DNA of 64,000 nucleotides. Origin: Candidatus Latescibacterota bacterium. Its GTDB lineage: Bacteria > Latescibacterota > UBA2968 > UBA8231. Shown in pieces: positions 32,394 to 59,759 of this stretch. A model generated the notes under the pieces. That model was not told the DNA's origin, did no database searches, and was given only the letters and a program-made list of their open reading frames with translations. A program made the position numbers and the translations under genes. Position 1 is the stretch's first letter, and each line of letters begins with the position of its first letter. The stretch covers positions 1,920,001 to 1,984,000 of the forward strand of contig OZ241889.1 in assembly GCA_965203355.1 (NCBI GenBank), given 5' to 3'.

Positions 32394-32541
32394 TGGCGTC
32401 TTTGGCAGTTCGTACATTTTGCGCTGCATAGTGTACGAACTGAGGGGCAAATTGGCGAATGGCATCGGCGCAAAGCGGTTGATTCGCGGTGCGTTGTGCC
32501 CTATACTTTTGCCGAATGAAAACTCTGTGGAGGTAGTCGCA

Positions 32542-39383: not shown

Positions 39384-40337
39384 ATGAAGAAGCTGACCCT
39401 TTTGGCTGCGATCGCAGCCTTTTGCGTTACGACGCTGGCCCACGCCCAGCCCCCCGTGCGCTACTTCGACCTGCCCAAGTTCACCCAAGCCCCCACGCTC
39501 GATGGCGACCGCATGACAGTCCCGGATGAGTGGGCTGGTGCGCTGGAATTTAACTGCTCGCCGAGCCAGATTCAGCAAGACGGCCAAGAGTTTGGCTGGC
39601 GCAATATCGAGCAGCAATCTAGCGAGGTAAGCACCAACCAGCTCAACGAAAACGGCGAGACCGAAGTCGCGGGTGAAGGCCGCACGGATGCCGATGTTTC
39701 TTCGATGATCTGGCAGGCATGGGACGATGACGCGCTGTACTACATCACCGAGGTTAGCGATAACGTCCGCGACACCGAGGGAGGTGGTGAGGCACATGCT
39801 TGGTGGGAGCGCGATAGCATGTCCCTGTATCTCGATATGAACAACGAGGATCACCCGGGTGGCGACCCCACCGGCGAGTACGTCAATCTGAATGTGGTCA
39901 ACTTCATGGCCGTGCCTTTTGGTGCAAACGATCTGTCCGTCTGCTACATCACCACCGTGCAGAATCAGCGCGTGAATGTCCACGATCCCGAAGCAATTGA
40001 GGGTTTTGAGTACGGTTTCCGCGATGCCGGCGACGAGTTTGGCGACGAAGGGGATGCCGACTACGTGATCGAGGGGCGGATGGAGTGGGACACCTTCTTG
40101 CGCAATGGCAATCTCTTTGAAGCCCCCACGGCTGGTTCTGAGATGGGCTTTACTTGGCTGTTGGTTGACCCGGATGGCGAAGACGCCTATGGCGGTCAGA
40201 TCCAGTGCGTGGCTTGGGCCGGCGGCAATCAGTCCGAATTTGCCAACTATGTCTTTGTGGACACACCGGCTGGTCCATCAGGCACCGCGGTCGAAGAAGA
40301 TTCTTGGGGCCGCGTAAAGGCGACCTTCGTTCAGTAG
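39384..40337 (+). CDS. Secreted acidic CBM9-like (sugar-binding/DOMON-like) protein with TAVE..SWG.VK tail
   Basis: Signal peptide; APTLDGD...EW, WQAWDDDALYYITEVSD, DSMSLYLD, YVIEGRMEW, MGFTWLLVDPD. Confidence 0.75.
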   Translation: MKKLTLLAAIAAFCVTTLAHAQPPVRYFDLPKFTQAPTLDGDRMTVPDEWAGALEFNCSPSQIQQDGQEFGWRNIEQQSSEVSTNQLNENGETEVAGEGRTDADVSSMIWQAWDDDALYYITEVSDNVRDTEGGGEAHAWWERDSMSLYLDMNNEDHPGGDPTGEYVNLNVVNFMAVPFGANDLSVCYITTVQNQRVNVHDPEAIEGFEYGFRDAGDEFGDEGDADYVIEGRMEWDTFLRNGNLFEAPTAGSEMGFTWLLVDPDGEDAYGGQIQCVAWAGGNQSEFANYVFVDTPAGPSGTAVEEDSWGRVKATFVQ

Positions 40338-40368
40338 TCAATAACTTCTGGCTAGACTTGAATAGAAA

Positions 40369-40407
40369 GCGGGAAGTGGGCTTGACGCCTGCTTCCCGTT
40401 TTTTTTT
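40369..40407 (+). terminator. Intrinsic terminator
   Basis: gcgggaagtgggc-ttgac-gcctgcttcccgt followed by a T run. Confidence 0.85.
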
Positions 40408-40491
40408 CTTGACGCGCGCGTTCTGGCAAATATATGTTTTCGCCCGTCAATTTTTAGGTCGCTCAATCAACATGACCCGCAAGGGGTTGTC

Positions 40492-43461
40492 ATGCTGTGT
40501 GTTATAAAGTGCCGTGTTGTCAAGCACTGGGTGGTCTTGTCCGCGCTGATTGGCGCTGGCTTGTTCGCGCCGACGGAGGCGCAGCGTCACCCCGAATCGG
40601 CCGGCCCGCTGCCCTATTACGACCCTTCGCCCGGTACGCCAAAGGATCCCCCGTGGAAAAAGCGTCCTCCCTTCCTGCGCGGTCCACAAGATCGCTACGA
40701 CCGAGGGTTGGGGAGGGCGTTCCTCAACACCGCAGTTAGCGTCCCTTATCTCAACTACGCCGACGAAAAGTACATTGCGTACTACCGCGAGACCGTTGCT
40801 TGGGCTACCCCGTCGGGTCGTCCTCTGAAAACCCGCAATGTGGGTTGGGACCGGATGGGCAACTACATGGGTGGCGGCTATCAGCGTCTGCTGACGATAG
40901 AAGAGTCGCGCAGCGGCAACGACTTTAGTGGATATAGCTACATTGACCACAAGAATCGGTCGTTTCGGATCGGCCACTACACGCACAAGGATTTGCACTG
41001 GACCGCCACGCTGGGCAACGTAGGCACCCAAGGCGGTGCGACGGATATCCGCACCATCTTCACACCGCTCACGCTAGTCAACAGCAAGATGAGTGCGTTG
41101 CGCATGGACATCAACTACAAGGAGCGCGACCGCGCGACGCTGCTCTACTCGCGGGGCGGCGATCACTCCGGTGCCCAGCTATTCTCCAAATGGGCAATTG
41201 GCCAAGAAGGCGACGACGCTTGGGACAACGCGCCAGTGTTGCTTTTTGGCGGCCACTATCAGCGCGAAGTCGGCCGTTTTGCCAGCGTTGGTGGAACGCT
41301 AGTCAACCAAATTATGGCTTCGCCGGATCTGTCGCGCTCCAGTGCTTGGCGCGGCGATTTGCCCTATCAGATGCTCGCTCCTAAGACCATCCGCGTCTTT
41401 GTGGCCGATGACTCGCCCGACGACGCGCGGGCCAATGCCATTGTCTATGGGGTGGACATCGTCCTCGAGGGCACACGCGGTACAGAGCCGATGCGCCTGA
41501 CCAGCCTCGACGACGATCCAGACTACGACCCAATGCTAGAAGCCGGGCCGCCGGAGGGCGGGGCTGTCCACGCGGGCGGCGGGCGCGAAGCCGAGGGCAA
41601 GGTGCCGGTGGTGTACACTTTCGTCCTTCCGGCCGACGTGACGGTGCGCTCGGCGCGCTTTGTCGCAGATGTAGCGGGCGATTATCGGGTCGGCGTCAGC
41701 CAGGTCCACGACTTCTTCAATGTTGATCGCCGAGGCAACGCGGCTATCACCGAGGTGGCTTGGCCCGCTCCCATCGCCAGCGCAGGTGAGCGGGCCATAC
41801 GGCGTCCGTTCAAATGGTACACAGCCGAAGATGAGCAACTCTACTACACCATCATCCGCGCCGATGGTAGCGATGGCAGCGGTGCAAACCGGCGGATGGT
41901 CTCCTTTGACTACGGCATTCCCACCGGGCAGAGCTTGGCCTCCATCAACTATCAGGTCGAGTTAGTGGGGCTGGAAGTCAGTGGCGAGGTGGCGCATAAC
42001 CTGCAAAACTTCATGTTCCCAATCGGCAACAACGAGGGCGTGCGCAGCCGTGAACGCGCCTTGGCGTGGTGGATCAAGGGCGTCAAGGATCTAGCCGGTG
42101 GCCTAGCGCTGGGCGGCGAACTGTACCGCATGGAGCCGAACTACGGCGGCGGCTACGATAGCTATCGCGGCGGCATGGCCTTCCACTACGATGGGCAGCC
42201 GGCCCCCGGCGGCAGAATCTCTACGGTCACCGAGGAGTATCCCCTCCACGAGGACAACGACGATCACGATCGCTTCCCCGACGAACACGTTAGCGATACG
42301 GCTATTGCCGAGCCGCGGACGCTGTATCCGGGTTTCCCCAACGCCCAGGTGTACCCCGGTCTCGACGAGAACGTCGATAACACCCCCGACGTGGACCGCA
42401 ACGAAAACTTCATCGTCGATTGGGAAGAAGCGTTTCTAACCTACGATTCAGAGCCACCCGAATTTGTCTATGGCATTGACTTCAACAACAACAATGTGCC
42501 CGACTTCCGCGAAAACGACGACAAGCCAGACTACCCCTATCCGCGCGACCAAAAGGGCCAGCACATCTTCCTCCGCTACGACCGCTTGGGACGCTGGGGT
42601 GAGTTCGTCAGCATAGGCCGCTACGACAACCGCCAGATCGCTGGCCCGGGCAAGTCCGAGGGAATTTACTTCCGCTACGCCTATGAGGTGGAAAAGCGCG
42701 GAGTTGGTGCGCTGCAAATCAACTTTGACGCCAAGCAGGTCAAAGACGACATCCCGGATCACACCTATGTGTACCGAGTGCCCATTGACGATGTTGAGGC
42801 CATAAACTGGTTTAACGAGCCGGACGGCCCGCCCGAGCGTGCAGGTTTTTGGCGACCGGCAACGCCAGACGAGTTGTCAATGCGCGACAGCTTTGTGCAT
42901 CTCCTCTTTTTCGACAGCACCTATCAAGGCTTTCGCGGCTTCAACCTTGAAAACGGCTTCCTGTGGCAGCGCAACAGCCAAGCCGAAATTGAGTTCAAAG
43001 ACGGCAGCGGACTGTTGCAGCCCCAAGACGTGCGCTCGCGTTTTTCCATGGTCAATAAGATCGACTACACCCATAGCTGGGGTGCCTTCAGCGTTACGCC
43101 TAAGTTGAAGCATCGGACGATCGTTGAGCAGGTCGATAGCGAGGATGCGCCGCGGCAATCGTACAGCGATTTTATCCCCATCGTAATGGGAGAGTACAAG
43201 CTCACGCCCAAGACCAGTTTTCAACTAGGCATACAAGGGCTGCCCTTGCTGCCGTTTAAGCACTGGGATCGCGCCTTTGAGGACGAGACGTACAGCCAGA
43301 CCGATTATATGGTTATGCTGAGCATCACCGCAGACTACTTTGGCATCCGCGACAATTCGCTATTTTTCGGCTACCAGCGTACGCGGCGGGATTTTAGCCA
43401 TGCCGGGCGGTCCGACGCCAAGCAAGGCATCCTCTTCGTAGAGCTGATATCACCCTTCTAA
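40492..43461 (+). CDS. Large exported protein, putative outer-membrane barrel with Asp/Asn-rich Ca-binding-like insert (paralog of 47450)
   Basis: Signal peptide; alternating beta pattern in the C-terminal third; terminal Phe (LFVELISPF); exact start uncertain. Confidence 0.7.
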   Translation: MLCVIKCRVVKHWVVLSALIGAGLFAPTEAQRHPESAGPLPYYDPSPGTPKDPPWKKRPPFLRGPQDRYDRGLGRAFLNTAVSVPYLNYADEKYIAYYRETVAWATPSGRPLKTRNVGWDRMGNYMGGGYQRLLTIEESRSGNDFSGYSYIDHKNRSFRIGHYTHKDLHWTATLGNVGTQGGATDIRTIFTPLTLVNSKMSALRMDINYKERDRATLLYSRGGDHSGAQLFSKWAIGQEGDDAWDNAPVLLFGGHYQREVGRFASVGGTLVNQIMASPDLSRSSAWRGDLPYQMLAPKTIRVFVADDSPDDARANAIVYGVDIVLEGTRGTEPMRLTSLDDDPDYDPMLEAGPPEGGAVHAGGGREAEGKVPVVYTFVLPADVTVRSARFVADVAGDYRVGVSQVHDFFNVDRRGNAAITEVAWPAPIASAGERAIRRPFKWYTAEDEQLYYTIIRADGSDGSGANRRMVSFDYGIPTGQSLASINYQVELVGLEVSGEVAHNLQNFMFPIGNNEGVRSRERALAWWIKGVKDLAGGLALGGELYRMEPNYGGGYDSYRGGMAFHYDGQPAPGGRISTVTEEYPLHEDNDDHDRFPDEHVSDTAIAEPRTLYPGFPNAQVYPGLDENVDNTPDVDRNENFIVDWEEAFLTYDSEPPEFVYGIDFNNNNVPDFRENDDKPDYPYPRDQKGQHIFLRYDRLGRWGEFVSIGRYDNRQIAGPGKSEGIYFRYAYEVEKRGVGALQINFDAKQVKDDIPDHTYVYRVPIDDVEAINWFNEPDGPPERAGFWRPATPDELSMRDSFVHLLFFDSTYQGFRGFNLENGFLWQRNSQAEIEFKDGSGLLQPQDVRSRFSMVNKIDYTHSWGAFSVTPKLKHRTIVEQVDSEDAPRQSYSDFIPIVMGEYKLTPKTSFQLGIQGLPLLPFKHWDRAFEDETYSQTDYMVMLSITADYFGIRDNSLFFGYQRTRRDFSHAGRSDAKQGILFVELISPF

Positions 43462-43468
43462 ACTACAC

Positions 43469-44236
43469 ATGCGACTTATAGCAAAACACATTCGCGTCTT
43501 CCTGTGCTTCGCCTTGGCCGTCGGGGGGTGCGCTACCCTTAGGTCGCTCGAATCCCAGGCAAAGCGGGAGTACTTCATTGACCTGGAGTCGGTCCTGCCC
43601 GATGGCGATACCTATTACATCGATCCGATCGACAGTTCGGTCGTGTGGAGCGAGCAAGGGGTGCAAGTCAAGGTCAAGTTCTACGACGATGCCATGCTCG
43701 ACGCCGAATACGGCACTCAATTCACGCCCTATACGCTCACGGGCGTCGAGATTCCCGGCTTAGACTATACGCCGCCGCTGTGGACCGTTTTTGAAGTAAC
43801 CGTGATCAACCGCACTCGCGAGCGGGTGGAGCTAGATCCCACGCAGACTATTCTGCGCTTGGACGACGGTAGCCGTCTGCTCTGTCGCCAAGGAGTGGGA
43901 GGGTGGTACGACAAGGACGAATTCTTCGACTATTCCTATTTAAAGTGGGGAGGACGAGAAGGTAATGTGCGCTATCACGCCAGCTTGGACCGCGATCCTA
44001 TTTGGGAGAAGAGCGAGTACCACCGGGAAAAGCCCGTGCGCAAAGGGTCCAGATACGTTGGCAAGTTGACCTTTCCACCGCTGCCGGCCGAGACGAAGTC
44101 GTTCACCCTTGAAGTACACGACTTCATTCTGGCCTTTGATCGGTTTGAAGTGGGGTACGGCAATCCGGTGGAATTTACCGACCTGAACTTCCACTTCAAC
44201 GTCGATCACGGAGTGCGTTGGGTGGAGAACAAATAG
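43469..44236 (+). CDS. Hypothetical lipoprotein (paralog of 55278)
   Basis: LAVGGC lipobox; IDP.DSS, PP..TVFEV.VIN.T, GNP.E..D..F.F.VD.G. Confidence 0.75.
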   Translation: MRLIAKHIRVFLCFALAVGGCATLRSLESQAKREYFIDLESVLPDGDTYYIDPIDSSVVWSEQGVQVKVKFYDDAMLDAEYGTQFTPYTLTGVEIPGLDYTPPLWTVFEVTVINRTRERVELDPTQTILRLDDGSRLLCRQGVGGWYDKDEFFDYSYLKWGGREGNVRYHASLDRDPIWEKSEYHREKPVRKGSRYVGKLTFPPLPAETKSFTLEVHDFILAFDRFEVGYGNPVEFTDLNFHFNVDHGVRWVENK

Positions 44237-44237
44237 A

Positions 44238-44894
44238 ATGAAAAAGATGGTAAAATATCTCGGCGTGGTGCTGCTTGTCGGCGCGGCGGCCTGCACGTTG
44301 AAATACGAGGCCCTCAAGGATACTAGTTTGCCCAACCCGCCGTCGCTGCCGGTCAAAATATACATCAAGGAATTTCCGGTCGACAGCAAGGCCAACGTGG
44401 TCGATCCGCGGAGCGCCACTTCGGTCGTTGCTCAAGGAAACCAGTACAGTACTAACGCCCTCGCCAGTGAGGGAAATAAACTGGTGCAAATTACTCGGCC
44501 TTCGCGCATTGAAGATTTGTCTGGGGCCTTGTTGCGCGAACTGCGCCAGGATAAGGTGCGGATCTTCACCCAGACGGATCGGGTCGAGGTGTTAGACGAA
44601 AACAGCGTACGACAAGTACATAATCCCTTCGCGCTCGTCTCCGAGGACTCGGACGAAGCCGACTTAGAAGTGAGCGGCACGGCGCTGATTACCAGTCAGC
44701 GGGTTCGCAAAGTGTTCTCTTCGCAAACGCACCGAGTGCAGATTGAGGTTTCCGTCAAGGATCTCAAAACCGGCAAAGAAAGCAAGAAAAGCCCGGTGGA
44801 TGCCGGCATTGTCATGACCTTCAACTCCAAGGAGTTGGAGGAGGCCCTCGCCATTGCCGTGGTGACCAGTCTGACGCAGAGACTGCTATTCTGA
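44238..44894 (+). CDS. Hypothetical lipoprotein, possibly CsgG/TolB-N-like fold
   Basis: GAAAC lipobox; IYIKEF...ADLEVSGT...IEVSVKDLKTGKE. Confidence 0.6.
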   Translation: MKKMVKYLGVVLLVGAAACTLKYEALKDTSLPNPPSLPVKIYIKEFPVDSKANVVDPRSATSVVAQGNQYSTNALASEGNKLVQITRPSRIEDLSGALLRELRQDKVRIFTQTDRVEVLDENSVRQVHNPFALVSEDSDEADLEVSGTALITSQRVRKVFSSQTHRVQIEVSVKDLKTGKESKKSPVDAGIVMTFNSKELEEALAIAVVTSLTQRLLF

Positions 44895-44895
44895 A

Positions 44896-46554
44896 GTGCT
44901 GAGGCTGGGCGCACTTTTGCTGTTATTTGGCTTCAGTCCGTGTCGCGCTGAATTAAAGACTTGGGTGGTAGATGCGGTCGAAACATTTGCTTTGGGAACG
45001 ACCCAAGGCGTTGAGATACATCCAGATAGTCTCGTCATTCTGGCGCAGTTGGAAGAGGATGTAAACGTGGCCTTAGGACGATTGGTGCTAGACGATTTTG
45101 ACAAGCCTGTGCCCCTAACGGATGGCGCGATTGACCTCGTGCGGAGCGAGTGGATTTCGGGCACCAATCGCGTGTTCGACAAGCGGTTTACCGTCGATCT
45201 CGGGCTGGATCGGGCGATCAAGCGGGTGCGAGTGCTGGCTGGCGAGACAGCGCTGAATCAGCCCGAATATTTCATGCGCGGCTACCGGCTCGAAACCGCC
45301 GCCCAAGCGGCACCGCAAGTCTGGCATCTGTTAGCCGAGCAGCCGGACAATTTCGTCCTCAATGTGGATACGAGCGCGGATTCTACTTGGGCTGCGACTG
45401 ACGAGCGCGGTGCGGTGATCCCGCGCCAGGGTCGCTTCGTGCGGCTGACCCTGATCCGCCAAGACCGCAGCAACTGGGTCGCCCTTGGAGAAATTGAGGT
45501 GTTCGGCGTGGGCTACGTTAGCGAAGGCTTCATAGAGGGTCGCTTCGCTCCGCCTGCTCCAGTCAACGTAGGGCGGATCCGCTGGCAAGCCGAGCGTCCA
45601 GAGCGCACGGGCATTGAATTGCAAGTGCGCGGAGTGGCCGTAGGGGGTGTAGCCGAGCCTTGGGGAAGCGTGGCCGCGTACGCGGACGAGGAATTTTTCT
45701 ACAGTGGAGCCGAGCCGGTCGCGCGGTTGGCGTACCGGGCCAATTTGACGAACTCGGCCCCCTTTGTCAGCCCGGTGCTCAAGCGCATTGCCATTGACTA
45801 CGATCCGGTCTTGGTCGCCCGGCAACTTGAGGCCGAGATCGCGGTATCCGATTCGCTGCGCAAGGGCGAAGAGGCGACGCTGATCTACCGGGTGGAGATC
45901 GCGGCTGGCGTTGGTGATTACGGGGTCGATCTCTTGCGCGTCCAAGGCCCTTTGCTTCGCGTAACCGCCGTGCGCGTCGATGGTCGAGAACTCGTACCGA
46001 CACAAGGCCACACTTGGGGCCCGACGCCCGATCGCGAGGGCATGTTAGTAGAGCTGGCACCTAGCGAGCGGATTAGCGCGATGGCGACCGTTGAAATTGA
46101 GGGGCCAGCGCTCTTTGTGCGCGACAAGACTGCCATGCGCTTTGAGGCTGGCAACAAGGCCCAAGGCGACAGGGACGGCTACGTGAACTGGCAGCAGGGA
46201 CGAGCAAAGCCGGGGGCCACTTGGACGGTACTGGCTGCGGGGGTGCCGCTGCCGCTTTTGGGCGAAGTAAAGGTGCAGCCGCGCCCGTTCTCTCCGTTTG
46301 CCGACGAATATGCGTGCTTTGCCTTTGTGGTCGGCAATATCGAAGCCGGCCGGGAAGTCGTGCTAAAAATTTACAACCTGACGGGTCGGCCAATTCGCCA
46401 GTTGGCGCAGATCGGAAGCGCCCGAACCTATCAGTTCGAGTGGGACGGTCGCGATGCGAGCGGGCGCGTTGTCGAGCCGGGGCTCTATCTGTACGAAGCA
46501 GGGATAGCAGGAAGCGATAAGGCGCGCCGAGGTACTTTTGTGGTGGCGTACTAG
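44896..46554 (+). CDS. Secreted discoidin-like + FlgD-Ig tail protein (related to 18-2081)
   Basis: NVALGR, FTVDLG...IKRVRV, GRFVRL, LGEIEVFG.GY; tail PFSP...IYNLTGRPIRQL...WDGRDASGRVVEPGLYLY...FVVAY. Confidence 0.75.
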   Translation: MLRLGALLLLFGFSPCRAELKTWVVDAVETFALGTTQGVEIHPDSLVILAQLEEDVNVALGRLVLDDFDKPVPLTDGAIDLVRSEWISGTNRVFDKRFTVDLGLDRAIKRVRVLAGETALNQPEYFMRGYRLETAAQAAPQVWHLLAEQPDNFVLNVDTSADSTWAATDERGAVIPRQGRFVRLTLIRQDRSNWVALGEIEVFGVGYVSEGFIEGRFAPPAPVNVGRIRWQAERPERTGIELQVRGVAVGGVAEPWGSVAAYADEEFFYSGAEPVARLAYRANLTNSAPFVSPVLKRIAIDYDPVLVARQLEAEIAVSDSLRKGEEATLIYRVEIAAGVGDYGVDLLRVQGPLLRVTAVRVDGRELVPTQGHTWGPTPDREGMLVELAPSERISAMATVEIEGPALFVRDKTAMRFEAGNKAQGDRDGYVNWQQGRAKPGATWTVLAAGVPLPLLGEVKVQPRPFSPFADEYACFAFVVGNIEAGREVVLKIYNLTGRPIRQLAQIGSARTYQFEWDGRDASGRVVEPGLYLYEAGIAGSDKARRGTFVVAY

Positions 46555-47398: not shown

Positions 47399-47449
47399 GT
47401 TGGAAGGCAACTGAAGACCGAATCTCTACACTGCATGAGGATAGCTGCC

Positions 47450-50371: not shown

Positions 50372-50388
50372 GCTAGGAGGTTGACGCC

Positions 50389-53300: not shown

Positions 53301-53661
53301 GAAAGTACTCAAGCTATATCCCAACTCCGAAGAGGCGTCGCGGGCCACGGCGTTGGTAGCAGAGCTACGCGAGATCCAAGCCAGCTTTAGCTACAACGAG
53401 GCCATGAAGCTCTTTGAAGCCAAAGACTACGAGCGGGCCGTGCCCGCGCTACAGAAAATCATCCGCGATTATCCCGGCACCCATACCGAATTGGCGGCCT
53501 ACTGCAACTTGGGGCTGGTCTATGAAATCACGCGCCAGTGGTCGCAGGCCGTGGAAAAGTATCAGGTCGTGGAAGAAAAGGGTGGGGACGATCCGGAAAA
53601 CGCCGACGTGGTCGGTTTTGCCAAGCTACACCGAGAATGGATTGTGGAAAATCGGCTCTAG
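50389..53661 (+). CDS. 1090-aa TPR protein (BamD/CpoB-like repeats)
   Basis: AGGAGG RBS; N-terminal hydrophobic segment; many A.F.IG..Y...Y..A...Y..L...YP.S repeats. Confidence 0.88.
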   Translation: MILVNLLLIAAVGAVASLSTRFFSPVELQDRFEEGQKLYALGDYDKAIERYEVILSTESNAMINVEDVTVAVDEFILPVRVGATYQLGNTYNKLGLEKLQRSQFLRSEQKEAEADARYEEALQDLNKSRDLFRSLAADERVDDRTRVMAQYQMIQTSYQLKEYEQVIEEGNQLLHNFSHSLYEASVHYDRAWSYFELERYDEAIASFKQVLILAPRGSNADRSLFQIAESYDKLGQYEDALEYLDRLIARYDFAQMTEEEIIEMTTLKLKGLVKETARELVAKAHLKKGDIYARNSEVAKALAAYAVIPAEYAVEPILVQNSYIRTAELVQKERGTTAAIAAYKDAIEKVEDKLFQARTQLTVALMLFDQQQYRKSAQEYEIYLNAYGDVAQRIGFDRYKVLFRIAQCHQEYGRQIRGADPASADEEIAKALEGYDQLLSQREDHVLIPDVLFNAGFANQILEKNEVARPLYQRLVDEYADHPAAPNGLLQLARIAYAASDLKRAEDLYKSFLNRFPDSQLRHTTRMELGLTYKRLEDSDNAIAAYETVEEGWDKWPTVQVELAELYLGKREYEKARQALVRALDRAGDDTLKSQMYYTLARVHFAEDNFAGAIRAWGQAIALNPPEHLLQNSLLARGGAYYEVAKQQDAVGDTAQARVSYEASLADMKALLESAPAPQIKDSAFRTLGAGMIRLGRQEEAASYYRELIAASGDPQEQATFSMLLTELYYDQQDFVQAEKFARQLLDMPFEDDNQAGYYRKERAYSIIGNALLQQKEYEEAARVFAQGLKRYPNSGESGNLAFSKGFAEISYGNYDTAAKSFKSFVDTYPRNANRIHGQYYLAHSLQALTRFKEAAAAFSELVERDRQSQYEEEALFLIGENHYNDQAFAAAATAYQALLAKYPQGPYGGSAQYALAWSFVEQEEMEQAVGAMQGLVANYPESEFAPKAQFTIGDYYYNIQSYDEAMTAYEKVLKLYPNSEEASRATALVAELREIQASFSYNEAMKLFEAKDYERAVPALQKIIRDYPGTHTELAAYCNLGLVYEITRQWSQAVEKYQVVEEKGGDDPENADVVGFAKLHREWIVENRL

Positions 53662-53709
53662 TGAGGTTTTAACGCAACGCACAGTAGGACACAATACCGG
53701 GAGGTTGTA

Positions 53710-54384
53710 ATGGAGCAGAATTTTTTAGTCGACCAGTTTTTCAAGGGCGGGCCTATCATGTGGCCCCTGTTGCTCTGCTTGCTGATCGCCCTAGCCATCA
53801 TCATCGAACGGCTGTGGCGGCTGCTGACGGTCCCGGGCGAAGAGGAAGCCGAACAGCAGCTCAACCAGGCCGAGGACGTGCTCAGAAGCCAAGGCGAAGG
53901 CGGGGCCGTTGAGCTGTTTCGCGACGGCCGTGGCGTGCTCAACTTCATCTTTGCCGCGTTGGTGAAGCGCTACGATACCTTGGTGCTCGAAAATCGCACG
54001 GATCTAGAGGACATGCGCCAAGAGTTGATTTTGGCCACTGAGGAAGCCGGCGAGATGTATCTCGGCCGGCTGCTCAACGCGCTCGGAACCATTGGCGTCC
54101 TTTCTCCGCTGATGGGGTTGTTGGGCACGATCATGGGTATGATTAATGCCTTTGACGCGATTGCCCGCGCTGGGGCTGGCGATCCGGCGGCGGTGGCCAG
54201 TGGTATTTCCGAAGCCCTGATCACGACGGCCAGCGGCCTCATCGTCGCCATTCCGACCATCGTCTTCCACCGCTACCTCTCCGGCCGGGCGGAAAAGGTT
54301 TTCAAGAGCGTGGAGCTGTACTGCCACGCCTTCGCCAATACCCTGCTGGTGCGCTTCCAAGCTAGTCAGCGGGAGGCCAGTTAG
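53710..54384 (+). CDS. exbB: MotA/TolQ/ExbB proton-channel protein
   Basis: GGPIMWPL, SPLMGLLGTIMGMINAF, ASGISEALITTASGLIVAIP. Confidence 0.92.
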   Translation: MEQNFLVDQFFKGGPIMWPLLLCLLIALAIIIERLWRLLTVPGEEEAEQQLNQAEDVLRSQGEGGAVELFRDGRGVLNFIFAALVKRYDTLVLENRTDLEDMRQELILATEEAGEMYLGRLLNALGTIGVLSPLMGLLGTIMGMINAFDAIARAGAGDPAAVASGISEALITTASGLIVAIPTIVFHRYLSGRAEKVFKSVELYCHAFANTLLVRFQASQREAS

Positions 54385-54402
54385 GCAGAAAGAGACGCGG
54401 CC

Positions 54403-54822
54403 ATGCGGCAGAGACGAAAGAGCGGATTTGGCAAAAGGGCCTTTAAGACCTCGGAAAACCCGGATCTGACTCCGCTGATCAACTGCATGTTCTTGCTGTT
54501 GGTTTTCTTTATGGTGGCGACCACCTTCGTCAATCCCAAGGGGTTGAGCGTAGATCTGCCAGGGGGCGAAGGCGAGTCGAGAGCGACCAAGGACATGAAC
54601 ATCGTGATCGACCCGGATCAGACGATCCAAGTCAACGGCGAGGTCACGGATAAGGCGCGGTTGGCGGAAAAGATCCGGCAAGTCATTGAGACGGACAACA
54701 CCAAGAACGTGATTTTGGAGTCCGCGCGCTCAATACCGCACGCCTACGTGGTGCAGGTGATGGACATCGCCCGCGGCGAGGGCATTGAGGCCATTGCTTT
54801 CGCCAAGAGCGGAGAAGGATAG
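54403..54822 (+). CDS. exbD: ExbD/TolR family protein (TM Asp replaced by Asn)
   Basis: DLTPLINCMFLLLVFFMV, VDLP, VVQVMDIARGEGI. Confidence 0.88.
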   Translation: MRQRRKSGFGKRAFKTSENPDLTPLINCMFLLLVFFMVATTFVNPKGLSVDLPGGEGESRATKDMNIVIDPDQTIQVNGEVTDKARLAEKIRQVIETDNTKNVILESARSIPHAYVVQVMDIARGEGIEAIAFAKSGEG

Positions 54823-54826
54823 CGCC

Positions 54827-55246
54827 ATGGCTAAACGGAGACAATCGCTGGCCGAAAAAGCGGGCGAGTTTGAGCTGAACCTGACGCCGATGATCGACGC
54901 CGTGTTCCTGCTGCTGATCTTCTTTATGACCACCACGGTCTTTGTCAAGGCCACCCAGCTCAAGATCGAGCTGCCCGACTCGGTTCACTACGACCAACTC
55001 AAAGCCGAAAAGAAGCTGAATCTGCGCATCTCAAGCGAGGGCCAGCTTGAGATCAACGGCCAGTTCGTGGCGATGGGGCAGCTCGCGCGCTGGTTAGAGC
55101 GAGAAAAGGTCCGCACCGGTTCAGCGACGCTGATTATCACCGCGGACGCGGACGCGGCGCACGGCCATATCATCGACGCCATGGAAATGGCCACCATGGC
55201 GGGCGTAGAAAAAATCGACATTGAAACCGAGGAACCAACCAATTGA
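54827..55246 (+). CDS. exbD: ExbD/TolR family protein (canonical Asp)
   Basis: NLTPMIDAVFLLLIFFM, IELP, IITADADAAHG. Confidence 0.9.
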   Translation: MAKRRQSLAEKAGEFELNLTPMIDAVFLLLIFFMTTTVFVKATQLKIELPDSVHYDQLKAEKKLNLRISSEGQLEINGQFVAMGQLARWLEREKVRTGSATLIITADADAAHGHIIDAMEMATMAGVEKIDIETEEPTN

Positions 55247-55277
55247 CGACTGGTAGCAAAACGGGAGTTGCAATTTT

Positions 55278-56045
55278 ATGAGAGCAAAGTACATGGGGCT
55301 CGTCGGCTTAGTGGCGCTCGGGTTGGTCTGGAGCTGCGGGGGGCTGGTGCCGCCCGAAATGGTGTACGATCTGCATGTGATGCCCGTCCCGCCCGCAGGC
55401 CGCGGCGACTACACCATCGATCCAGACGACAGCTCGATGGTCTTTAGCAAAGAGGGGCTTTTAATCCGGGTGCGACACCTGAGCGACGCCGAGCTCAACG
55501 GGCGCTTCCCGCCCCTGTACGACGGTCGCCACGTCAACCCCTACACCCGCGACGACCTTGATCCCGAAAAGGGCTACATCCCTCCGAGATTCACCGTTTT
55601 TGAAGTCGAGGTCATAAACAAGACCTATGCCAAGATCGAGTTCGATCCGGCCAAGGCGATCATGGAATCGGGCGGCGAGACCTATCGCTACTACGATCCC
55701 GGGCGCGAAGGGGCTGTCGTGGAGGGAGGCAACAGCTTCACCAAGTACTACAAAATGGAGCTGGGCACTTCGGGCAATGAGCGCGAAATCAACTTGGAGC
55801 GCATGGGCATTATCTACAAGACGGTCTTTCATCGCGATCGACCGATCTTCCGCGATAGCCGCCAAAAAGGCATGTTGGTCTTTGATCCATTGCTGCCGGA
55901 AAACGACGAGTTGCTGCTCACATTCCGCGAATTCGTGCTTTCGTTTGACGCCAGTGGCAATCCCGAAGAGACCATTGACGTCGAGTTCCGTTTTGCCGTG
56001 GACCAAGGAACGAGGGAAAAGGCTGGCGCGAGCGGAGCGGGTTGA
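55278..56045 (+). CDS. Hypothetical lipoprotein (paralog of 43469)
   Basis: LVWSC lipobox; YTIDPDDSS, YIPPRFTVFEVEVINKT, GNPEETIDVEFRFAVDQG. Confidence 0.75.
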   Translation: MRAKYMGLVGLVALGLVWSCGGLVPPEMVYDLHVMPVPPAGRGDYTIDPDDSSMVFSKEGLLIRVRHLSDAELNGRFPPLYDGRHVNPYTRDDLDPEKGYIPPRFTVFEVEVINKTYAKIEFDPAKAIMESGGETYRYYDPGREGAVVEGGNSFTKYYKMELGTSGNEREINLERMGIIYKTVFHRDRPIFRDSRQKGMLVFDPLLPENDELLLTFREFVLSFDASGNPEETIDVEFRFAVDQGTREKAGASGAG

Positions 56046-56107
56046 ATATCACTATGGCAGGACATCTCATTGCGAGGGGCTGGACCTTCCGTCTAGCTCC
56101 TCTTTTT

Positions 56108-57760
56108 ATGCACAAAACGCGGTTGGTCGGCCTGCTAGTCGGGGCCTGCATTAGCTGTGGCCAAGAGCGGCCGGACAACGCCCATCTGTTGGCCAAAGTC
56201 GGCGCGGTCGAGATTACCGCGTCCGATCTCCACGCCTTTGAAGCCAACCTCAAAACAGCCGCCTTGCGCGCCGAGCACCGGAACAATTTGCAGACGCTCA
56301 TTGACCGCGAGGTGTTGCTCTTGGCGGCCAATGCACGCGCGTTGCAGCGCGACCAAGCGGTCTTAGCCGAACTTGCCAAGCGCGAGACCAAAGCCCTCGC
56401 CGATGCGATGTTGCAGCGCAATGTCGAGGCTAAGATCGCGGTGACTAAAGACGACATCGAAAAAGCCTATGCGCGGCCGGGATGGTCAGAAAAGGTCACC
56501 ACTATGGAGATTTTTGTGCCCGACCGAAAACAGGCGCGGCAGGTAACAAGTGCTTTGGCACAGGGCGAGGATTTTGCGGAAGTGGGCCGTCAATTCGCCG
56601 CGGATCCCTATTATGGCGTGCATACTGGTGAAGTCCGGCAGGTGGCCTATTCACCTTTTGATAGTCCCCGCGCCCTAGCCCAAGCCGTCTTTGCCCTACC
56701 CGTGGGCGGCGCGACCGAGCCGATACCTTTTCACGGTGGATTCGTCATCGCCAAAGTGGCGGAGCGTCGTCGCGCCGAATTGATCGAGGTCGAGGACGGC
56801 ATCCGCGAGGCGCTCGGCGACGAGCAGCAAAAGCAACGGCGCGAATCGTACCTGCGGCATCTCAAGTGGGACTTGGAGACGGTTTTTGACGCCGAAGGCA
56901 TGGATATTGTAGTAAGCGTCTTACAGGGCGCGGCTAAACTGGTGGACTTGGGCGAGGCCGAGCGCCAGCACCCGGTCTATGCTTTCGAGGGCTTGCAGAT
57001 GGATGTGGCCGAGGTCTTAGAAGCCGTGCGGCCATCGGGCCGATTGTGGCCGGAAGCCACGGCCGACGCCGTCAACGAGAAACTATCCGCGGACCACTTT
57101 CCCAACCGCCTTATGGCCCACGACGCCCGGCGCAAGGGCCTTGATAAAACCGAGGCTTTTGCGCGTGCGCACGAACTAGCGTTGGGCAATCTGATGCTGA
57201 TAGCGCTGCGCGAGCAGATCTTGGCCGAGGCTCCCGCGCCGACCGAGGACGAGCTACGGGCCTTCTACGAGGAGCACAAGCACCGCTTTCGCACGCCCGC
57301 GCACGCCCGTTTAGAGGAAATCTTGCTCGAAACCCCGAGCGAGGCGCGTCAGATTGCAGCGCAGATTGCGGCCGGTGCCGAGTGGGCGGAATTGGCCCGC
57401 GTCCACAGCGTGCGCCGCAACGCCGAAGACGGCCTCCTGTACGTGTCCGAATCACAGGCTCCCTTTTTGGGGGAGGCTTGGATGAATGCGGTGATGAACG
57501 CCGAACTGAATCAACTCCAAGGGCCGATCCAAACGAGGGGAGGCTATTCGATCTTTCGGGTTATCGAACGCTCCCCAGCGGTTTATCACGACCTAGCGCT
57601 AGCGCGGGTGCGGAATTCGGTGGAGCGGGACGTGCGAGAGCGCGTGGAGCGGGCGTTCTTCAATAGCTATCTGCGCGATTTGCGCCAAAAATACGCCGAG
57701 CAGATTGACGTGTACGAAGAACACCTGCGGCATTTAGACGACGAGTCGGTGCAGAACTGA
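56108..57760 (+). CDS. Parvulin-type peptidyl-prolyl isomerase (SurA/PrsA-like, two rotamase domains)
   Basis: LAKVGAVEIT, LIDREVLL, GEDFAEVGRQF, GAEWAELARVHS, GPIQTRGGYSIFRV. Confidence 0.85.
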   Translation: MHKTRLVGLLVGACISCGQERPDNAHLLAKVGAVEITASDLHAFEANLKTAALRAEHRNNLQTLIDREVLLLAANARALQRDQAVLAELAKRETKALADAMLQRNVEAKIAVTKDDIEKAYARPGWSEKVTTMEIFVPDRKQARQVTSALAQGEDFAEVGRQFAADPYYGVHTGEVRQVAYSPFDSPRALAQAVFALPVGGATEPIPFHGGFVIAKVAERRRAELIEVEDGIREALGDEQQKQRRESYLRHLKWDLETVFDAEGMDIVVSVLQGAAKLVDLGEAERQHPVYAFEGLQMDVAEVLEAVRPSGRLWPEATADAVNEKLSADHFPNRLMAHDARRKGLDKTEAFARAHELALGNLMLIALREQILAEAPAPTEDELRAFYEEHKHRFRTPAHARLEEILLETPSEARQIAAQIAAGAEWAELARVHSVRRNAEDGLLYVSESQAPFLGEAWMNAVMNAELNQLQGPIQTRGGYSIFRVIERSPAVYHDLALARVRNSVERDVRERVERAFFNSYLRDLRQKYAEQIDVYEEHLRHLDDESVQN

Positions 57761-57773
57761 GCAAACGAGGGGA

Positions 57774-59759
57774 GTGATTTTGTCGTCGGCCAACGTCCAA
57801 GAGCGCTTCGCGATCATGCCCGCCGATGCCTCTTTTGAACCGGGCTTTAATGCAAAGACCCTGTGGGCGGCGCTCTTCGTCGGCTTTGTCATGCTGCCCG
57901 GCGCGATTTACCTCGGGTTGGTGACCGGGATGAGCATGGCCGGAGGGGCCGAATGGGTGACGCTCATTCTCTTCATCGAAATGGCCAAGCGCACCTTCGT
58001 ATCCCTGCGGACTCAGGAGATCATCATCCTCTACTGGGTGGCCGGCGGCTTGGTAATGATGGGCGGCAAGCTGGGCACCGGGGCCGATCTCTTCGGCGGC
58101 CCATTCGGCGTGTTGATCTGGGATCAGTATTTGATCCAATCGCCGCAAGCCGACGGACTGGCCGAGCACATTCCAACTTGGGTCGTGCCTCCGCGTGGCT
58201 CGGCCGCTCTCTTAGAGCGCAGCTTCCTAGACAGCGCGTGGCTCAAGCCCATCGTCATCCTCCTCTGCGCCGTTGCCTTGCAGCGCGTCAACGCCCTGTC
58301 GCTGGGCTACGTGCTCTTCCGCATCACCCACGACATTGAGCGCCTGCCCTTTCCCATGGCCTATGTGCAGGCCGGAGGGGCGACCGCCCTCGCTGAAACC
58401 TCAGCCAAGCAGGAGGGGTGGCGCTGGCACGTGTTCAGCACCGGGGCTTTTATCGGGGCTGTGTGGGGCGTATTCTACGTGGTGGTGCCGACGCTGTCGT
58501 CGGTTTTTTTGACCGAAACCGTGTCGATCTTGCCGATTCCCTTCATCGACTTCACCGTGCTGCTAAAGGCCGTTTTACCCGCTGCCGTCATCGGCTTGGC
58601 TACGGATTTGATCCACGTGCTATTCGGCCTCGTACTGCCGTTCTGGGTGGTCGTAGGGGTGTTTGCCTCGTCGATCTTGGTCAACTTGGTCGCCAATCCC
58701 ATCCTCTATGCCTACGGCATCTTGCACACTTGGGAGCCGGGCATGTCGTCGATCCCCACCCAGATTGCCAATACCTTTGACTTCTGGCTGAGCTTTTCGC
58801 TAGGGGGGGCCATCGTGGTCGCGGCTATGGGTTTCTATACCGCAGGTAAAGTCTTGCTCGCCGCTGGCAAGGTTCGGGAAACGGTTCGAGAGCCTGGCCC
58901 CGAGCGCGGCGACATCCGCATGGTCGTGGCCTTGGGAATCTGGGCGGTGAGCACGCTGTGCTTCGTGCTGATGGTGTACTATTTGGTGCCCGATTTCCCT
59001 TGGTGGATCACCGCGCTCTTTGGCTTTGTGTGGACGCCGATTTACTCGTACATCGGCACGCGGATGATCGGCCTGACCGGGTCGCCGCAGGGGGTAACTT
59101 TTCCCTATCTGCGCGAGGCCAGCTTCTATTTGTCCGGCTACCAAGGGGCCGGGATCTGGTTCGCGCCGGTGCCGATCTTCCAGTGGGGCTACGAGGCGCA
59201 AGTGTTCAAGCAGCTGGAGCTGACGCGCACTCGCTTTGGCAGCATCGTCAAGATGACGGCCCTGACTTTGGCTGTCATGTTCGCGTGTAGCTTTCTGTTC
59301 TGGTCGCTGATATGGAAGCTGGGGCCGATTCCTTCCTCGGCGTACCCATTCGTGCAAAAGATGTGGCCTTTCCACGCCACCATGCAGGCGTTCTGGGCCA
59401 AGTCAACTCTGCCGGGCGCGGGCCAGAGCTTGGTAACGCAAATTATTCGCTGGGATTACATCGGGATTGGGCTGGTCTTTAGCGGCGCGTTGTACGCACT
59501 GCTGAGCGCACTCAGCGCACCGCTGGGGATTTTCTATGGTTTTGTCGCGGGCCTCGGCGGCTGGCCGCACTTTGCCATCCTCAACTTCCTTGGTGCTCTG
59601 CTGGGCCGCTTCTACTTGCAAAAGCGCTTTGGCCCGGAGCGGTGGTACGCGTACGCGCCCATCGTGCTGGCCGGGTACTCGTGCGGTGTGGGGCTGATCG
59701 GCATGACGGCCATTGCCATTGCGCTGATTTCCAAGGCCGTATCGCAGGTCGTGTTCTGA
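57774..59759 (+). CDS. Polytopic membrane protein, OPT-like putative peptide transporter
   Basis: Many hydrophobic helices; AEWVTLILFIE, DIERLPFPMA.V.A.GATALAE, IP...YP. Confidence 0.65.
   Translation: MILSSANVQERFAIMPADASFEPGFNAKTLWAALFVGFVMLPGAIYLGLVTGMSMAGGAEWVTLILFIEMAKRTFVSLRTQEIIILYWVAGGLVMMGGKLGTGADLFGGPFGVLIWDQYLIQSPQADGLAEHIPTWVVPPRGSAALLERSFLDSAWLKPIVILLCAVALQRVNALSLGYVLFRITHDIERLPFPMAYVQAGGATALAETSAKQEGWRWHVFSTGAFIGAVWGVFYVVVPTLSSVFLTETVSILPIPFIDFTVLLKAVLPAAVIGLATDLIHVLFGLVLPFWVVVGVFASSILVNLVANPILYAYGILHTWEPGMSSIPTQIANTFDFWLSFSLGGAIVVAAMGFYTAGKVLLAAGKVRETVREPGPERGDIRMVVALGIWAVSTLCFVLMVYYLVPDFPWWITALFGFVWTPIYSYIGTRMIGLTGSPQGVTFPYLREASFYLSGYQGAGIWFAPVPIFQWGYEAQVFKQLELTRTRFGSIVKMTALTLAVMFACSFLFWSLIWKLGPIPSSAYPFVQKMWPFHATMQAFWAKSTLPGAGQSLVTQIIRWDYIGIGLVFSGALYALLSALSAPLGIFYGFVAGLGGWPHFAILNFLGALLGRFYLQKRFGPERWYAYAPIVLAGYSCGVGLIGMTAIAIALISKAVSQVVF

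Follow-up and report, generated by a model that had tools for sequence, protein, structure and literature searches.

Gene content of the region

The window analysed here is a stretch of 64,000 nucleotides from a Candidatus Latescibacterota bacterium (assembly GCA_965203355.1, contig OZ241889.1, positions 1,920,001 to 1,984,000). At positions 39384-59759 on its plus strand it carries a CBM9-like gene followed by thirteen co-directional genes with intergenic gaps of -38 to +48 nt; these encode two giant predicted outer-membrane barrels (bigA and bigB), three small lipoproteins, a surface protein, a PorV-like small barrel, a giant tetratricopeptide-repeat (TPR) protein, one ExbB-type and two ExbD-type motor subunits, a lipoprotein peptidyl-prolyl isomerase (PPIase) and a polytopic membrane protein. 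The cluster is genuine, strongly conserved and for the most part undescribed, a motor-driven envelope machine of the Tol/Ton/Agl kind whose outer-membrane part is entirely new, and it looks like an unstudied sort of energised outer-membrane machine. An earlier note on this DNA had listed thirteen same-strand genes after the CBM9-like gene and its terminator, and all of them lie where it placed them; the one correction is that the CBM9-like gene itself, and not the stretch behind it, begins at 39384.

The cluster proteins were profiled against Pfam (reporting threshold, E <= 0.01) and NCBIfam, and the family scan of the window covered the 14 open reading frames (ORFs) of the cluster plus 29 and 6 further ORFs. 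These databases recognise only part of the set, namely the MotA/ExbB/TolQ-type subunit, the two ExbD/TolR-type subunits, the TPR repeats and the parvulin PPIase, with weak matches to FlgD_ig and PorV/PorQ; no Pfam or NCBIfam family was matched by bigA, bigB, the lipoproteins lipoA, lipo2 and lipoB, or the 661-aa membrane protein.

The secreted CBM9-like protein with a WG tail (39384..40337; PF06452, E 9.8e-10) is followed by a terminator-like hairpin of 18 pairs with a T run (40364..40404) and a promoter-like site (40409-40438), both between this gene and bigA (40492..43461; predicted 989-aa barrel of a new family). Next come lipoA (43469..44236), the 218-aa lipo2 (44238..44894), a 552-aa FlgD-tail surface protein (44896..46554; FlgD_ig, E 2.4e-5; PorU-tail region, E 2.1e-5), the 286-aa PorV/PorQ-like small barrel, which overlaps the preceding gene by 17 nt (46538..47398; NF033709, E 6.5e-11), and bigB (47435..50371; 978 aa). 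The giant TPR protein of 1090 aa (50389..53661; TPR families, top E 1.9e-49) precedes the ExbB/TolQ-type motor subunit (53710..54384; PF01618 (MotA_ExbB), E 6.9e-29), ExbD/TolR paralog 1 (54403..54822; PF02472, E 5.5e-26) and ExbD/TolR paralog 2 (54785..55246, likely start 54827; PF02472, E 1.2e-28). After the ExbD genes, in what may be called the 'TonB position', stands lipoB (55278..56045), followed by the lipoprotein PPIase with two parvulin domains (56042..57760, likely start 56108; Pfam/NCBIfam) and the polytopic inner-membrane protein (57774..59759), which is OPT-like in the protein atlas only. A 12-pair terminator-like hairpin (56074-56102) lies between lipoB and the likely PPIase start and may represent an internal attenuator.

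The giant barrels

The proteins bigA and bigB are paralogs (35% identity, E 1e-166). An AlphaFold2 model of bigB, computed from a 31-sequence alignment (mean pLDDT 69.5, pTM 0.66), is a large beta-barrel with no globular N-terminal plug, in which the first ~70 residues are disordered. When the DSSP string of this moderate-confidence model is read backwards from the C-terminal Phe, the barrel would comprise ~24 strands; with short turns taken as periplasmic and long loops as external, a beta-sandwich with a helical insert (about residues 216-461) and an Asp-rich loop (about 541-667) would lie outside the cell, and the disordered N-terminus would be a periplasmic segment. The Asp-rich, calcium-type loop contains most of the invariant Asp/Asn columns of the barrel family; the N-terminal segment is conserved across the family, and bigA-type members add a conserved N-terminal extension. 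For bigA, homology to bigB and a C-terminal Phe point to an outer-membrane barrel as well.

The two large proteins had been taken for barrels in the earlier note, and this view holds up with bigB modelled as a barrel and bigA as its paralog. Nor are they TonB-dependent receptors by any of the tests made: neither bigA nor bigB matches Plug (PF07715) or TonB_dep_Rec (PF00593) in Pfam or NCBIfam, and the bigB model has no plug. No sequence relative of bigB was found among the structures in the Protein Data Bank (PDB). Comparison of the model with known folds (Foldseek, VIA-align) returned generic large barrels and nothing specific; the best match was SlpA (7zgx; Z 14.3, rmsd 7.9, 384 residues aligned), further matches were SusC, usher, porins, BtuB, SprA (Z 10.9), MtrB and LptD, and those to receptors were no better than those to ushers, porins, MtrB, LptD or SlpA. 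The named protein-atlas cluster nearest to bigB, DUF6029 (0.89), lay under the trust line and was set aside; no paper mentioning DUF6029 was found. A total of 77 bigA homologs was retrieved, none of which carries a protein name, and the named sources are all metagenome-assembled genomes (MAGs) of Latescibacterota.

In an alignment of N-termini, the predicted signal-peptidase cleavage of nearly all family barrels follows an Ala and leaves Gln as the first residue of the mature part. The Gln-first mature N-terminus recalls the 'Q-rule' of Bacteroidetes.

Motor subunits and giant TPR protein

In NCBIfam, the ExbB-type subunit scores 89 bits with TolQ and 64 bits with ExbB, and the ExbD paralogs score 57-60 bits with TolR; all motor subunits stay under the equivalog cut-offs for ExbB, ExbD, TolQ and TolR. 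The proton-binding transmembrane (TM) Asp of this family is replaced by Asn in ExbD paralog 1, in 8 of 8 readable Latescibacterota-type orthologs, and is retained in paralog 2, so that the motor would have a single stator helix that can be protonated. This Asp is described as essential in ExbD and TolR in the text of PMC12204202.

The repeats of the giant TPR protein are YbgF/CpoB-, BamD- and PorW-like (TIGR02795, 216.8 bits over 7 stretches). Its N-terminus is an uncharged hydrophobic helix, conserved in paralogs, which may act as a signal anchor or else as a signal peptide of unusual type; the protein is a candidate periplasmic scaffold.

Conservation, paralog expansion and co-occurrence

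Genome-wide statements are based on relatives rather than on the window's own genome; the closest complete relative (G001) is 88-96% identical in cluster proteins. A scan of species-representative genomes yielded at least 556 confirmed relatives, from which 64 loci were kept, and synteny was examined by searching these loci with the 14 window proteins (tblastn). The complete order from the CBM9-like gene to the membrane protein was found in eight loci, six at 83-97% identity (L001, L003-L006, L014) and two at 35-84% (L011, L015), so that the neighbourhood conservation, which had been named beforehand as a check, was observed; shorter loci match the order as far as their sequence reaches, and relatives of no more than about 50-60% identity still show it. 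Of the 18 ortholog loci whose sequence continues beyond the TPR gene, 17 have ExbB-ExbD-ExbD next and L008 does not; in L034, ~1.2 kb are inserted between ExbB and ExbD.

A simpler version of the cluster occurs in Ignavibacteria and Bacteroidota MAGs (L053, L054, L056, L058-L063) and comprises a protein with a type IX secretion system (T9SS) C-terminal domain (CTD), a PorV-like barrel, one barrel, and TPR-ExbB-ExbD or a lipoprotein; it is single-copy in an Ignavibacterium album MAG and in other Ignavibacteria (L053, L054, L060, L062). Among the closer paralog modules with a giant TPR protein, several also have ExbB-ExbD-ExbD (L040, L042, L050, L057). The arrangement is far from chance.

The barrel family is strongly expanded: four complete Latescibacterota chromosomes contain 51, 92, 66 and 54 barrel-profile candidates, the Ignavibacteria genome contains one, and the whole library of 1.84 billion sequences contains 952 representatives (E <= 1e-3). 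Against the 51-92 candidate barrel genes per Latescibacterota chromosome stand 5-11 MotA/ExbB-family matches in G001-G003 and 4 in G004, with extra ExbB copies near barrel or TPR clusters (at 245 kb in G001; several in G002).

Sixteen further barrel loci of G001 were compared by tblastn, and seven of these cassettes were scanned with Pfam. The cassettes contain one to three proteins with T9SS-type CTDs, several of them with discoidin domains (F5/8 type C), and CTD-bearing genes lie beside the barrels in 8/16 loci by tblastn and in all seven Pfam-scanned cassettes. Paralogs of the lipoprotein PPIase adjoin barrel paralogs in 11/16 loci and a lipoA/B-type lipoprotein does so in 6/16; the cassettes also carry a shorter TPR protein and CBM9-like paralogs with an (S/T)WGx(I/V)K tail. 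All 16 are devoid of a giant TPR gene and of motor genes.

In a sample of 61 genomes of the phylum, 36 have barrels and 31 have the giant TPR protein; 30 have both, six the barrel only, one the TPR protein only, and 24 neither (Fisher p 2e-10, uncorrected for kinship). In a sample of 81 genomes of the Bacteroidota phylum, the barrel family is present in three, all of them GldL-negative, which are too few for a test of anticorrelation.

The DUF4159 protein

A bitopic 405-aa protein with a DUF4159 domain (PF13709, E 8.9e-10) is encoded two genes upstream of the cluster (36857..38074, minus strand) and divergently transcribed, i.e. outside 39384-59759. This position is kept in L003-L006, L011, L014-L016, L024, L035 and L087, and is thus retained even in the distant loci L011, L015 and L035; in further loci DUF4159 genes lie beside giant TPR or ExbD genes (L022, L042, L046, L057, L060, L085), and in L060 and L085 directly 3' of ExbD. 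Among the DUF4159 matches listed (150 of 316), a match lies <=8 kb from at least 29 of the 51 listed giant-TPR matches, as read from the two tables. The median DUF4159 copy number is 5 in barrel-positive genomes versus 2 in barrel-negative ones.

All 16 aligned proteins share one architecture, with a short N-terminus, one TM helix, a conserved basic, Pro-rich linker and the C-terminal DUF4159 domain; a TM histidine is present in 11 of them, in several in an S-x-x-x-H setting, and none of the 16 matches a VWA family in Pfam. A solved, uncharacterised relative of the domain exists (4i66), and in the literature searched DUF4159 was found in the Pfam database article only.

The DUF4159 protein belongs to the module and is TonB-shaped; from its sequence features it is a candidate TonB/TolA-like force transducer. 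Of 28 members of the lipoA/B family, 4 (Ignavibacteria, Bacteroidota) carry a fused DUF4159 domain, which hints, in the manner of a Rosetta-stone fusion, at cooperation of the lipoprotein with the DUF4159 head. The fused proteins, lipoA/B-type lipoproteins of about 490 aa with C-terminal DUF4159, occur in L058-L061 (MAGs of Ignavibacteria and Bacteroidota), in L060 after a TM-anchored DUF4159 protein. A predicted complex of the DUF4159 head with lipoB scored 0.00, which gives no verdict and bears neither for nor against an interaction. A barrel-less unit of G001 (L085, at 238-258 kb) consists of a lipoprotein, a PorV-like barrel, a giant TPR protein, ExbB, a single ExbD and a DUF4159 protein whose TM helix bears S-x-x-x-H; a WG-tailed CBM9-like gene adjoins the unit.

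Lipoproteins, PPIase, surface proteins and membrane protein

Lipobox-type N-termini were found in lipoA, lipo2, lipoB and the PPIase. lipoA and lipoB are 36% identical (E 6e-34); the lipoB model is a beta-sandwich (pLDDT 88.6) with best fold matches to YcdA (Z 9.1) and YjhA (Z 8.4), both of B. subtilis, and lipoA is by homology a predicted beta-sandwich too. For lipoB as a conceivable LptE-like plug, the fold search listed generic beta-sandwich lipoproteins and no LptE. lipo2 was seen in orthologous clusters only (49-86% identity). The PPIase resembles PrsA, SurA and PpiD, and its lipobox follows the likely start at 56108.

The FlgD_ig match of the surface protein (24.6 bits) is below the cut-off of 27; paralogs of this protein score above the cut-off of FlgD_ig or CHU_C. 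In its N-terminal part the protein has homology (24-34% identity) to proteins of paralogous modules with F5_F8_type_C (discoidin) domains. The PorV-like protein matches NF033709 with 42.4 bits (cut-off 90) over residues 25-156 only, and its counterparts in L060 and L085 match over the full length with 74.8 and 77.8 bits, still under the 90-bit cut-off.

The CBM9-like protein ends in the conserved (S/T)WGx(I/V)K tail. In the window and 87 loci, 37 WG-tail CBM9-like ORFs (305-456 aa) were counted, 35 of which lie <=8.4 kb from a barrel gene; the remaining two have no barrel match within their locus. The CBM9-like gene is a recurrent member of the module. This membership, the upstream DUF4159 member and the dozens of barrel copies per genome were absent from the earlier account of the cluster.

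The membrane protein at 57774-59759 is among the best-conserved proteins of the set (77-97% identity in ortholog loci). The OPT-like label that it had been given stands in so far as the protein atlas likens it (0.96) to peptide-transporter clusters in which OPT is annotated on 15-33% of the members; it gained nothing from Pfam, where neither PF03169 (OPT) nor another family was matched at E <= 0.01, nor from NCBIfam and the PDB, which gave no match.

Relation to the type IX secretion system, TonB and Tol-Pal

Components of T9SS and of the TonB system are encoded elsewhere in related genomes. All five relatives examined (G001-G005) have a SprA-type ORF (about 2100-2260 aa) and a PorU above cut-off, which in the four Latescibacterota chromosomes is accompanied by a strong PorV match 200-250 bp away; each has 9-20 PorV-family matches, 20-32 plug domains and 2-4 TonB_C matches, and a canonical exbB-exbD-exbD-tonB set lies at 3.17 Mb in G001, apart from the cluster. 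No cluster ORF matches SprA, and none of the 14 matches TonB_C in Pfam or NCBIfam. Among all window ORFs scanned (14 + 29 + 6), there was no match to the plug, TonB_C, TolA, TolB, Pal, SprA and PorK-N families, in agreement with the description of a motor-linked envelope set that has no TonB, TolB or Pal of its own.

The tails of the surface proteins match models of T9SS C-terminal domains (CHU_C, Por_Secre_tail, PorU tail), and many G001 ORFs match the tail part of the PorU model only (40 of 165 candidates scored). With SprA, PorU and PorV elsewhere, the FlgD tails would therefore be ordinary sorting domains whose translocon is encoded outside the cluster. SprA (PF14349) was detected in 55 of the 61 phylum genomes, including 24 of the 25 barrel-negative ones, so that the cluster is not the T9SS of this lineage; given the distribution of barrels, TPR protein and SprA, the module is a unit of its own that is not required for T9SS. 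The earlier note had proposed the cluster as an export route for the FlgD-tail proteins of the lineage, and this did not survive, with SprA, PorU and PorV elsewhere in relatives (94% identical proteins) and SprA kept in those 24 genomes. One of the outcomes that it had named as counting against its reading, barrels that are divergent TonB-dependent receptors together with a canonical T9SS elsewhere behind the tails, was half borne out: relatives have a T9SS elsewhere that can account for the tails.

The genome-wide search in relatives, proposed in the same place, located SprA and TonB and did not locate GldL, GldM or GldK. GldL above cut-off was found in 0/5 relatives and 0/61 phylum genomes, with the same search positive in 19 of the 81 Bacteroidota-phylum genomes; GldM, and GldK above cut-off, were each found in 0/5 relatives, and a positive control existed for GldL alone. 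The cluster as the missing GldLM substitute was considered and rejected, with SprA in 24/25 barrel-negative genomes and GldL in none of them.

Neighbouring genes

Between the DUF4159 gene and the cluster lies a gene for a secreted 336-aa protein (38198..39208, minus strand) with neither a Pfam nor an NCBIfam match, whose membership in the module is uncertain; it is kept beside the DUF4159 gene in G001 (77% identity). Uncertain as well is the membership of an FGE-sulfatase-domain lipoprotein downstream of the membrane protein (about 59786-60592, plus strand; PF03781, E 1.4e-50), which belongs to the PorK/GldK/GldJ fold family (GldK, 73.8 bits; cut-off 350) and is kept beside the membrane-protein gene in G001 (80% identity). 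It is followed by a small LRR-like ORF (60564-61361, plus strand); a minus-strand ORF with no family match (59828-61261) is probably a shadow ORF.

Near the DUF4159 gene, FG-GAP/ASPIC (CRTAC1-like) proteins, one of them TPR-fused, and a HEAT-repeat protein are encoded on the minus strand (30150-32585, 34280-35959, 35961-36779); the HEAT-repeat gene adjoins the DUF4159 gene in G001 too (86% identity). Elsewhere in the window, at 18-2081 (plus strand) and 15868-21480 (minus strand), proteins with T9SS-type C-terminal domains are predicted (CHU_C, FlgD_ig, Por_Secre_tail), one of which is a 1870-aa He_PIG/Calx-beta protein.

Comparison with known systems

The barrel family, the lipoprotein family, the outer-membrane half and the cluster as a whole were not found described in the literature searched. 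With the Ton/SusC system the cluster shares an ExbB/ExbD-family motor, the small number of motors relative to many large barrels per genome, and barrels flanked by lipoproteins and surface binding proteins; by analogy only, the conserved N-terminal, predicted periplasmic barrel segment is placed where a TonB box would sit. It differs in that it has no TonB_C, its barrels have no plug or TonB_dep_Rec domain and probably ~24 strands instead of 22, and it includes a giant TPR protein and a PPIase, while the same genomes own 20-32 plug-bearing receptors and an exbB-exbD-exbD-tonB set besides.

In the T9SS translocon, SprA acts with PorV, a PPIase and the TPR lipoprotein SprE/PorW and is driven by GldLM. 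The cluster resembles it in that large barrels and a PorV-like small one go together with a PPIase, a TPR protein and a 5:2-type motor, and with candidate cargo whose CTDs are Ig-like. In contrast, the barrels of the cluster have no SprA_N match, the motor is ExbB/ExbD and not GldLM, the PPIase is parvulin-type, SprA, PorU and PorV are encoded elsewhere, and the module is missing from 25/61 genomes, 24 of which are SprA-positive.

For the inner-membrane half, the closest description (Williams-Jones et al., Mol Biol Evol 2025, PMC12204202) is that of TPR-tolQ-tolR-tolR loci whose force transducers are not TonB and have a 'vWA fold'. The main text reports these loci from Bacteroidetes and Rhodothermaeota among others, with function unknown and a motility-related role suggested; the transducers have a TM helix with a conserved SHLS-type His, a disordered Pro-rich linker and a globular head that is not TonB_C. 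Judged by that text, the TPR-ExbB-ExbD-ExbD order at 50389-55246 is alike, with two ExbDs that differ at the TM Asp; the DUF4159 protein is comparable in its TonB/TolA-like shape, with a TM His in 11/16 members and not in the window copy. The differences are that the head is DUF4159 by Pfam, with a VWA match in 0/16, and that in the window the gene of the putative transducer does not lie downstream of tolR, its product having lost the His. The main text of PMC12204202, whose supplementary loci may include some of this family, is silent on DUF4159, Latescibacterota and Ignavibacteria as well as on outer-membrane barrels, T9SS cargo and PorV-like proteins. That work covers the logic of the inner-membrane half of the cluster.

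The Agl-Glt/Nfs core complex of Myxococcus (aglR, aglQ, aglS, gltD, gltE, gltG, gltC), whose core genes form a monophyletic group (Luciano et al. 2011, PMC3169522), combines one TolQ-like with two TolR-like proteins; its TPR proteins are very large, its transducer is bitopic, Pro-rich and TonB-like, its outer-membrane barrels are paralogous, and there are duplicated clusters with different jobs. The parallel drawn in the earlier note, i.e. the layout of one TolQ, two TolR and giant TPR protein, is thus matched by the core complex of that description (PMC3169522). The barrels described here differ in that they are ~980 aa and of a new family, and the likeness is one of architecture; the candidate T9SS-type cargo, the PorV-like barrel and the dozens of cassettes per genome are further differences from the Agl-Glt system as described there.

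The BAM complex of Bacteroidota (BamA-BamD-BamG-BamH; PMC12611786) is alike in that its main barrel has a small FadL/PorV-type barrel as adaptor and a TPR protein as partner, with lipoproteins from which an extracellular structure is built, and in being confined to the Fibrobacterota-Chlorobiota-Bacteroidota (FCB) superphylum. Unlike it, the cluster has no BamA/POTRA features and has motor genes, and its barrel family is massively expanded and not universal in the phylum.

Proposed function and alternatives

With the families, the gene order, the co-occurrence, the barrel model and the lipoprotein fold as observed, the function that we favour, and hold tentatively, is that of a TonB-independent, motor-coupled outer-membrane uptake complex. 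It would be one trans-envelope system in three layers, i.e. inner membrane, periplasm and outer membrane. To the inner membrane, family and context assign an ExbB/TolQ pentamer-type motor with a heterologous ExbD pair. In the periplasm, the DUF4159-headed, TonB-shaped protein would transmit the work of the motor, and the giant TPR protein would be the scaffold beside it. The outer membrane would hold the two paralogous, plug-less, ~24-strand barrels (bigB by its moderate-confidence model, bigA by homology) with the beta-sandwich lipoproteins, and a discoidin-type surface protein, which the canonical T9SS would bring to the surface and the PorV/PorQ-like barrel probably holds there; the CBM9-like protein with its conserved C-terminal strand would complete this layer. 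The surface binding proteins would capture the ligand, motor and transducer would act on the N-terminal segments of the barrels or on the lipoproteins and so open the barrels, and the OPT-like permease would import the product, possibly peptides; the lipoprotein PPIase may be a dedicated folding factor for the giant barrels. The ratio of dozens of barrel cassettes to few motors would mirror that of TonB-dependent receptors to TonB. Uptake is favoured because of this TonB-like ratio, the binding-type neighbours, the permease that closes the operon and the conserved, putatively periplasmic N-terminal segment. It is possible, though we consider it less likely than not by some distance, that the FCB group has in such modules a second, TonB-independent class of energised transporters, with plug-less ~24-strand barrels in substrate-specific cassettes, a DUF4159 transducer, a TPR scaffold and T9SS-delivered binding subunits on PorV-like anchors, i.e. 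a parallel to TonB/SusCD built from unrelated parts.

Several observations weigh against an uptake complex of this kind. Nothing in the analysis shows the direction of transport, and the PrsA/SurA-like lipoprotein PPIase, present in 11/16 cassettes, fits export or assembly at least equally well. The bigB model is of moderate confidence (pLDDT 69.5), with its strand count and the sidedness of its inserts inferred from a DSSP string, and bigA and the PorV-like protein are known from sequence alone. The OPT likeness is a lead from a language model only, and the OPT-like gene is absent from the Ignavibacteria and Bacteroidota versions. The DUF4159 gene of the window lies 15.6 kb from the motor genes on the opposite strand, and its product, like those of its close kin, has no TM histidine. 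The cluster of a Handelsmanbacteria MAG (L008) has no ExbB/ExbD and runs straight from the TPR gene to lipoB. Unlike in polysaccharide-utilisation loci, no hydrolases or regulators were found in the seven G001 cassettes scanned with Pfam, and the reading of the cassettes as such loci is weakened by this absence of glycoside hydrolases and regulators; in six other Pfam-scanned loci, outside the G001 cassettes, such genes were likewise not seen apart from one GHL10-CTD gene (L060) and one GDSL lipase (L041).

The same parts could also serve a surface-assembly or export machine, a narrower form of the earlier note's main reading and the chief alternative, which we regard as rather doubtful: barrels, PorV-like adaptor, PPIase and TPR protein, powered by ExbB/ExbD, would insert, fold or anchor the tail-bearing CTD discoidin proteins and the WG-tail CBM9-like proteins, much as SprA-PorV-PPI-SprE does with GldLM. 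The cargo candidates are at hand, with CTD genes beside the barrels in the main cluster, in 8/16 G001 loci and in 7/7 Pfam-scanned cassettes, and with 35/37 WG-tail CBM9-like genes near barrels; the PrsA/SurA-like PPIase in 11/16 cassettes and the PorV/PorQ-like barrels in the core fit this function, and GldL above cut-off was found in 0/61 phylum genomes and GldM and GldK in 0/5, set against a GldL search positive in 19/81 Bacteroidota-phylum genomes. FadL/PorV-type barrels act as adaptors beside SprA in Bacteroidota. Such a barrel is described in the same role beside BamA there (PMC12611786), and Oar/PopC is a reported precedent for an ExbBD/TonB-dependent barrel in protein secretion. Against this function, SprA, PorU and PorV elsewhere can already export and attach CTD proteins, and 24/25 barrel-negative genomes keep SprA and have no GldL, so that the module is not the general missing T9SS motor of the phylum. 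We know of no secretion channel family with 50-90 copies per genome. A machine of the Agl-Glt/Nfs kind, in which the motor moves barrel-adhesin complexes for gliding, polymer surface transport or tensioned adhesion, seems unlikely. Its inner-membrane logic is that of the core complex as described in PMC3169522, the outer-membrane barrels are paralogous and the surface proteins have binding domains, and a motility-related role is suggested for similar loci in the main text of Williams-Jones et al. (PMC12204202); on the other hand, Glt families were unmatched in NCBIfam at E <= 0.01, with no direct comparison made to GltD, E, G and C, no MglA-/GltI-like cytoplasmic partners were seen in the window, though no search specific to them was made, and dozens of barrel cassettes per genome are foreign to Agl-Glt.

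Slightly less probable again is a housekeeping role in envelope maintenance or biogenesis, as a substitute for Tol-Pal or as a BAM- or Lpt-like platform with accessory barrels and lipoproteins. The motor is nearer to the TolQ/TolR than to the ExbB/ExbD models (TolQ 89 versus ExbB 64 bits; TolR 57-60), the TPR protein is made up of repeats like those of YbgF/CpoB and BamD, the set includes a SurA-like PPIase, TolA, TolB and Pal were not seen among the window ORFs scanned, and the Ignavibacteria and Bacteroidota carriers are single-copy. Yet 25 of the 61 genomes of the same phylum have no barrels, 24 of these no giant TPR protein either, and such absence does not sit well with a housekeeping function that is essential; a diversified function is also suggested by how far the paralogs have expanded and by neighbours of the substrate-binding type. 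That there is no single system, with a TolQR-type motor operon merely next to unrelated outer-membrane and lipoprotein genes, looks very unlikely. The L008 cluster with no motor genes inside and the 0/16 G001 barrel cassettes with their own motor or giant TPR gene would fit it; it is contradicted by the gene order kept to about 50% identity, the same families found together in Ignavibacteria and Bacteroidota MAGs, the genome-level co-occurrence, the extra motors that adjoin further barrel or TPR clusters, and the lipo-DUF4159 fusions.

Biological significance

Motors of the 5:2 type that are driven by the proton-motive force are known to power few envelope processes, i.e. TonB uptake, Tol-Pal, flagella, T9SS/gliding and Agl-Glt, and the module would add another process to this list. 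Its outer-membrane partners are unnamed: a barrel family of ~1000 members, a family of beta-sandwich lipoproteins and a family of WG-tailed CBM9-like proteins; for the putative transducer head, DUF4159, one solved structure and no known function are on record. The single-copy version of Ignavibacteria makes the function testable if a cultured strain carries the cluster. In Latescibacterota, where each genome has 51-92 candidates, few paralog families are as large as the barrels; what these proteins do is therefore of central importance to the way in which these uncultured bacteria meet their environment.

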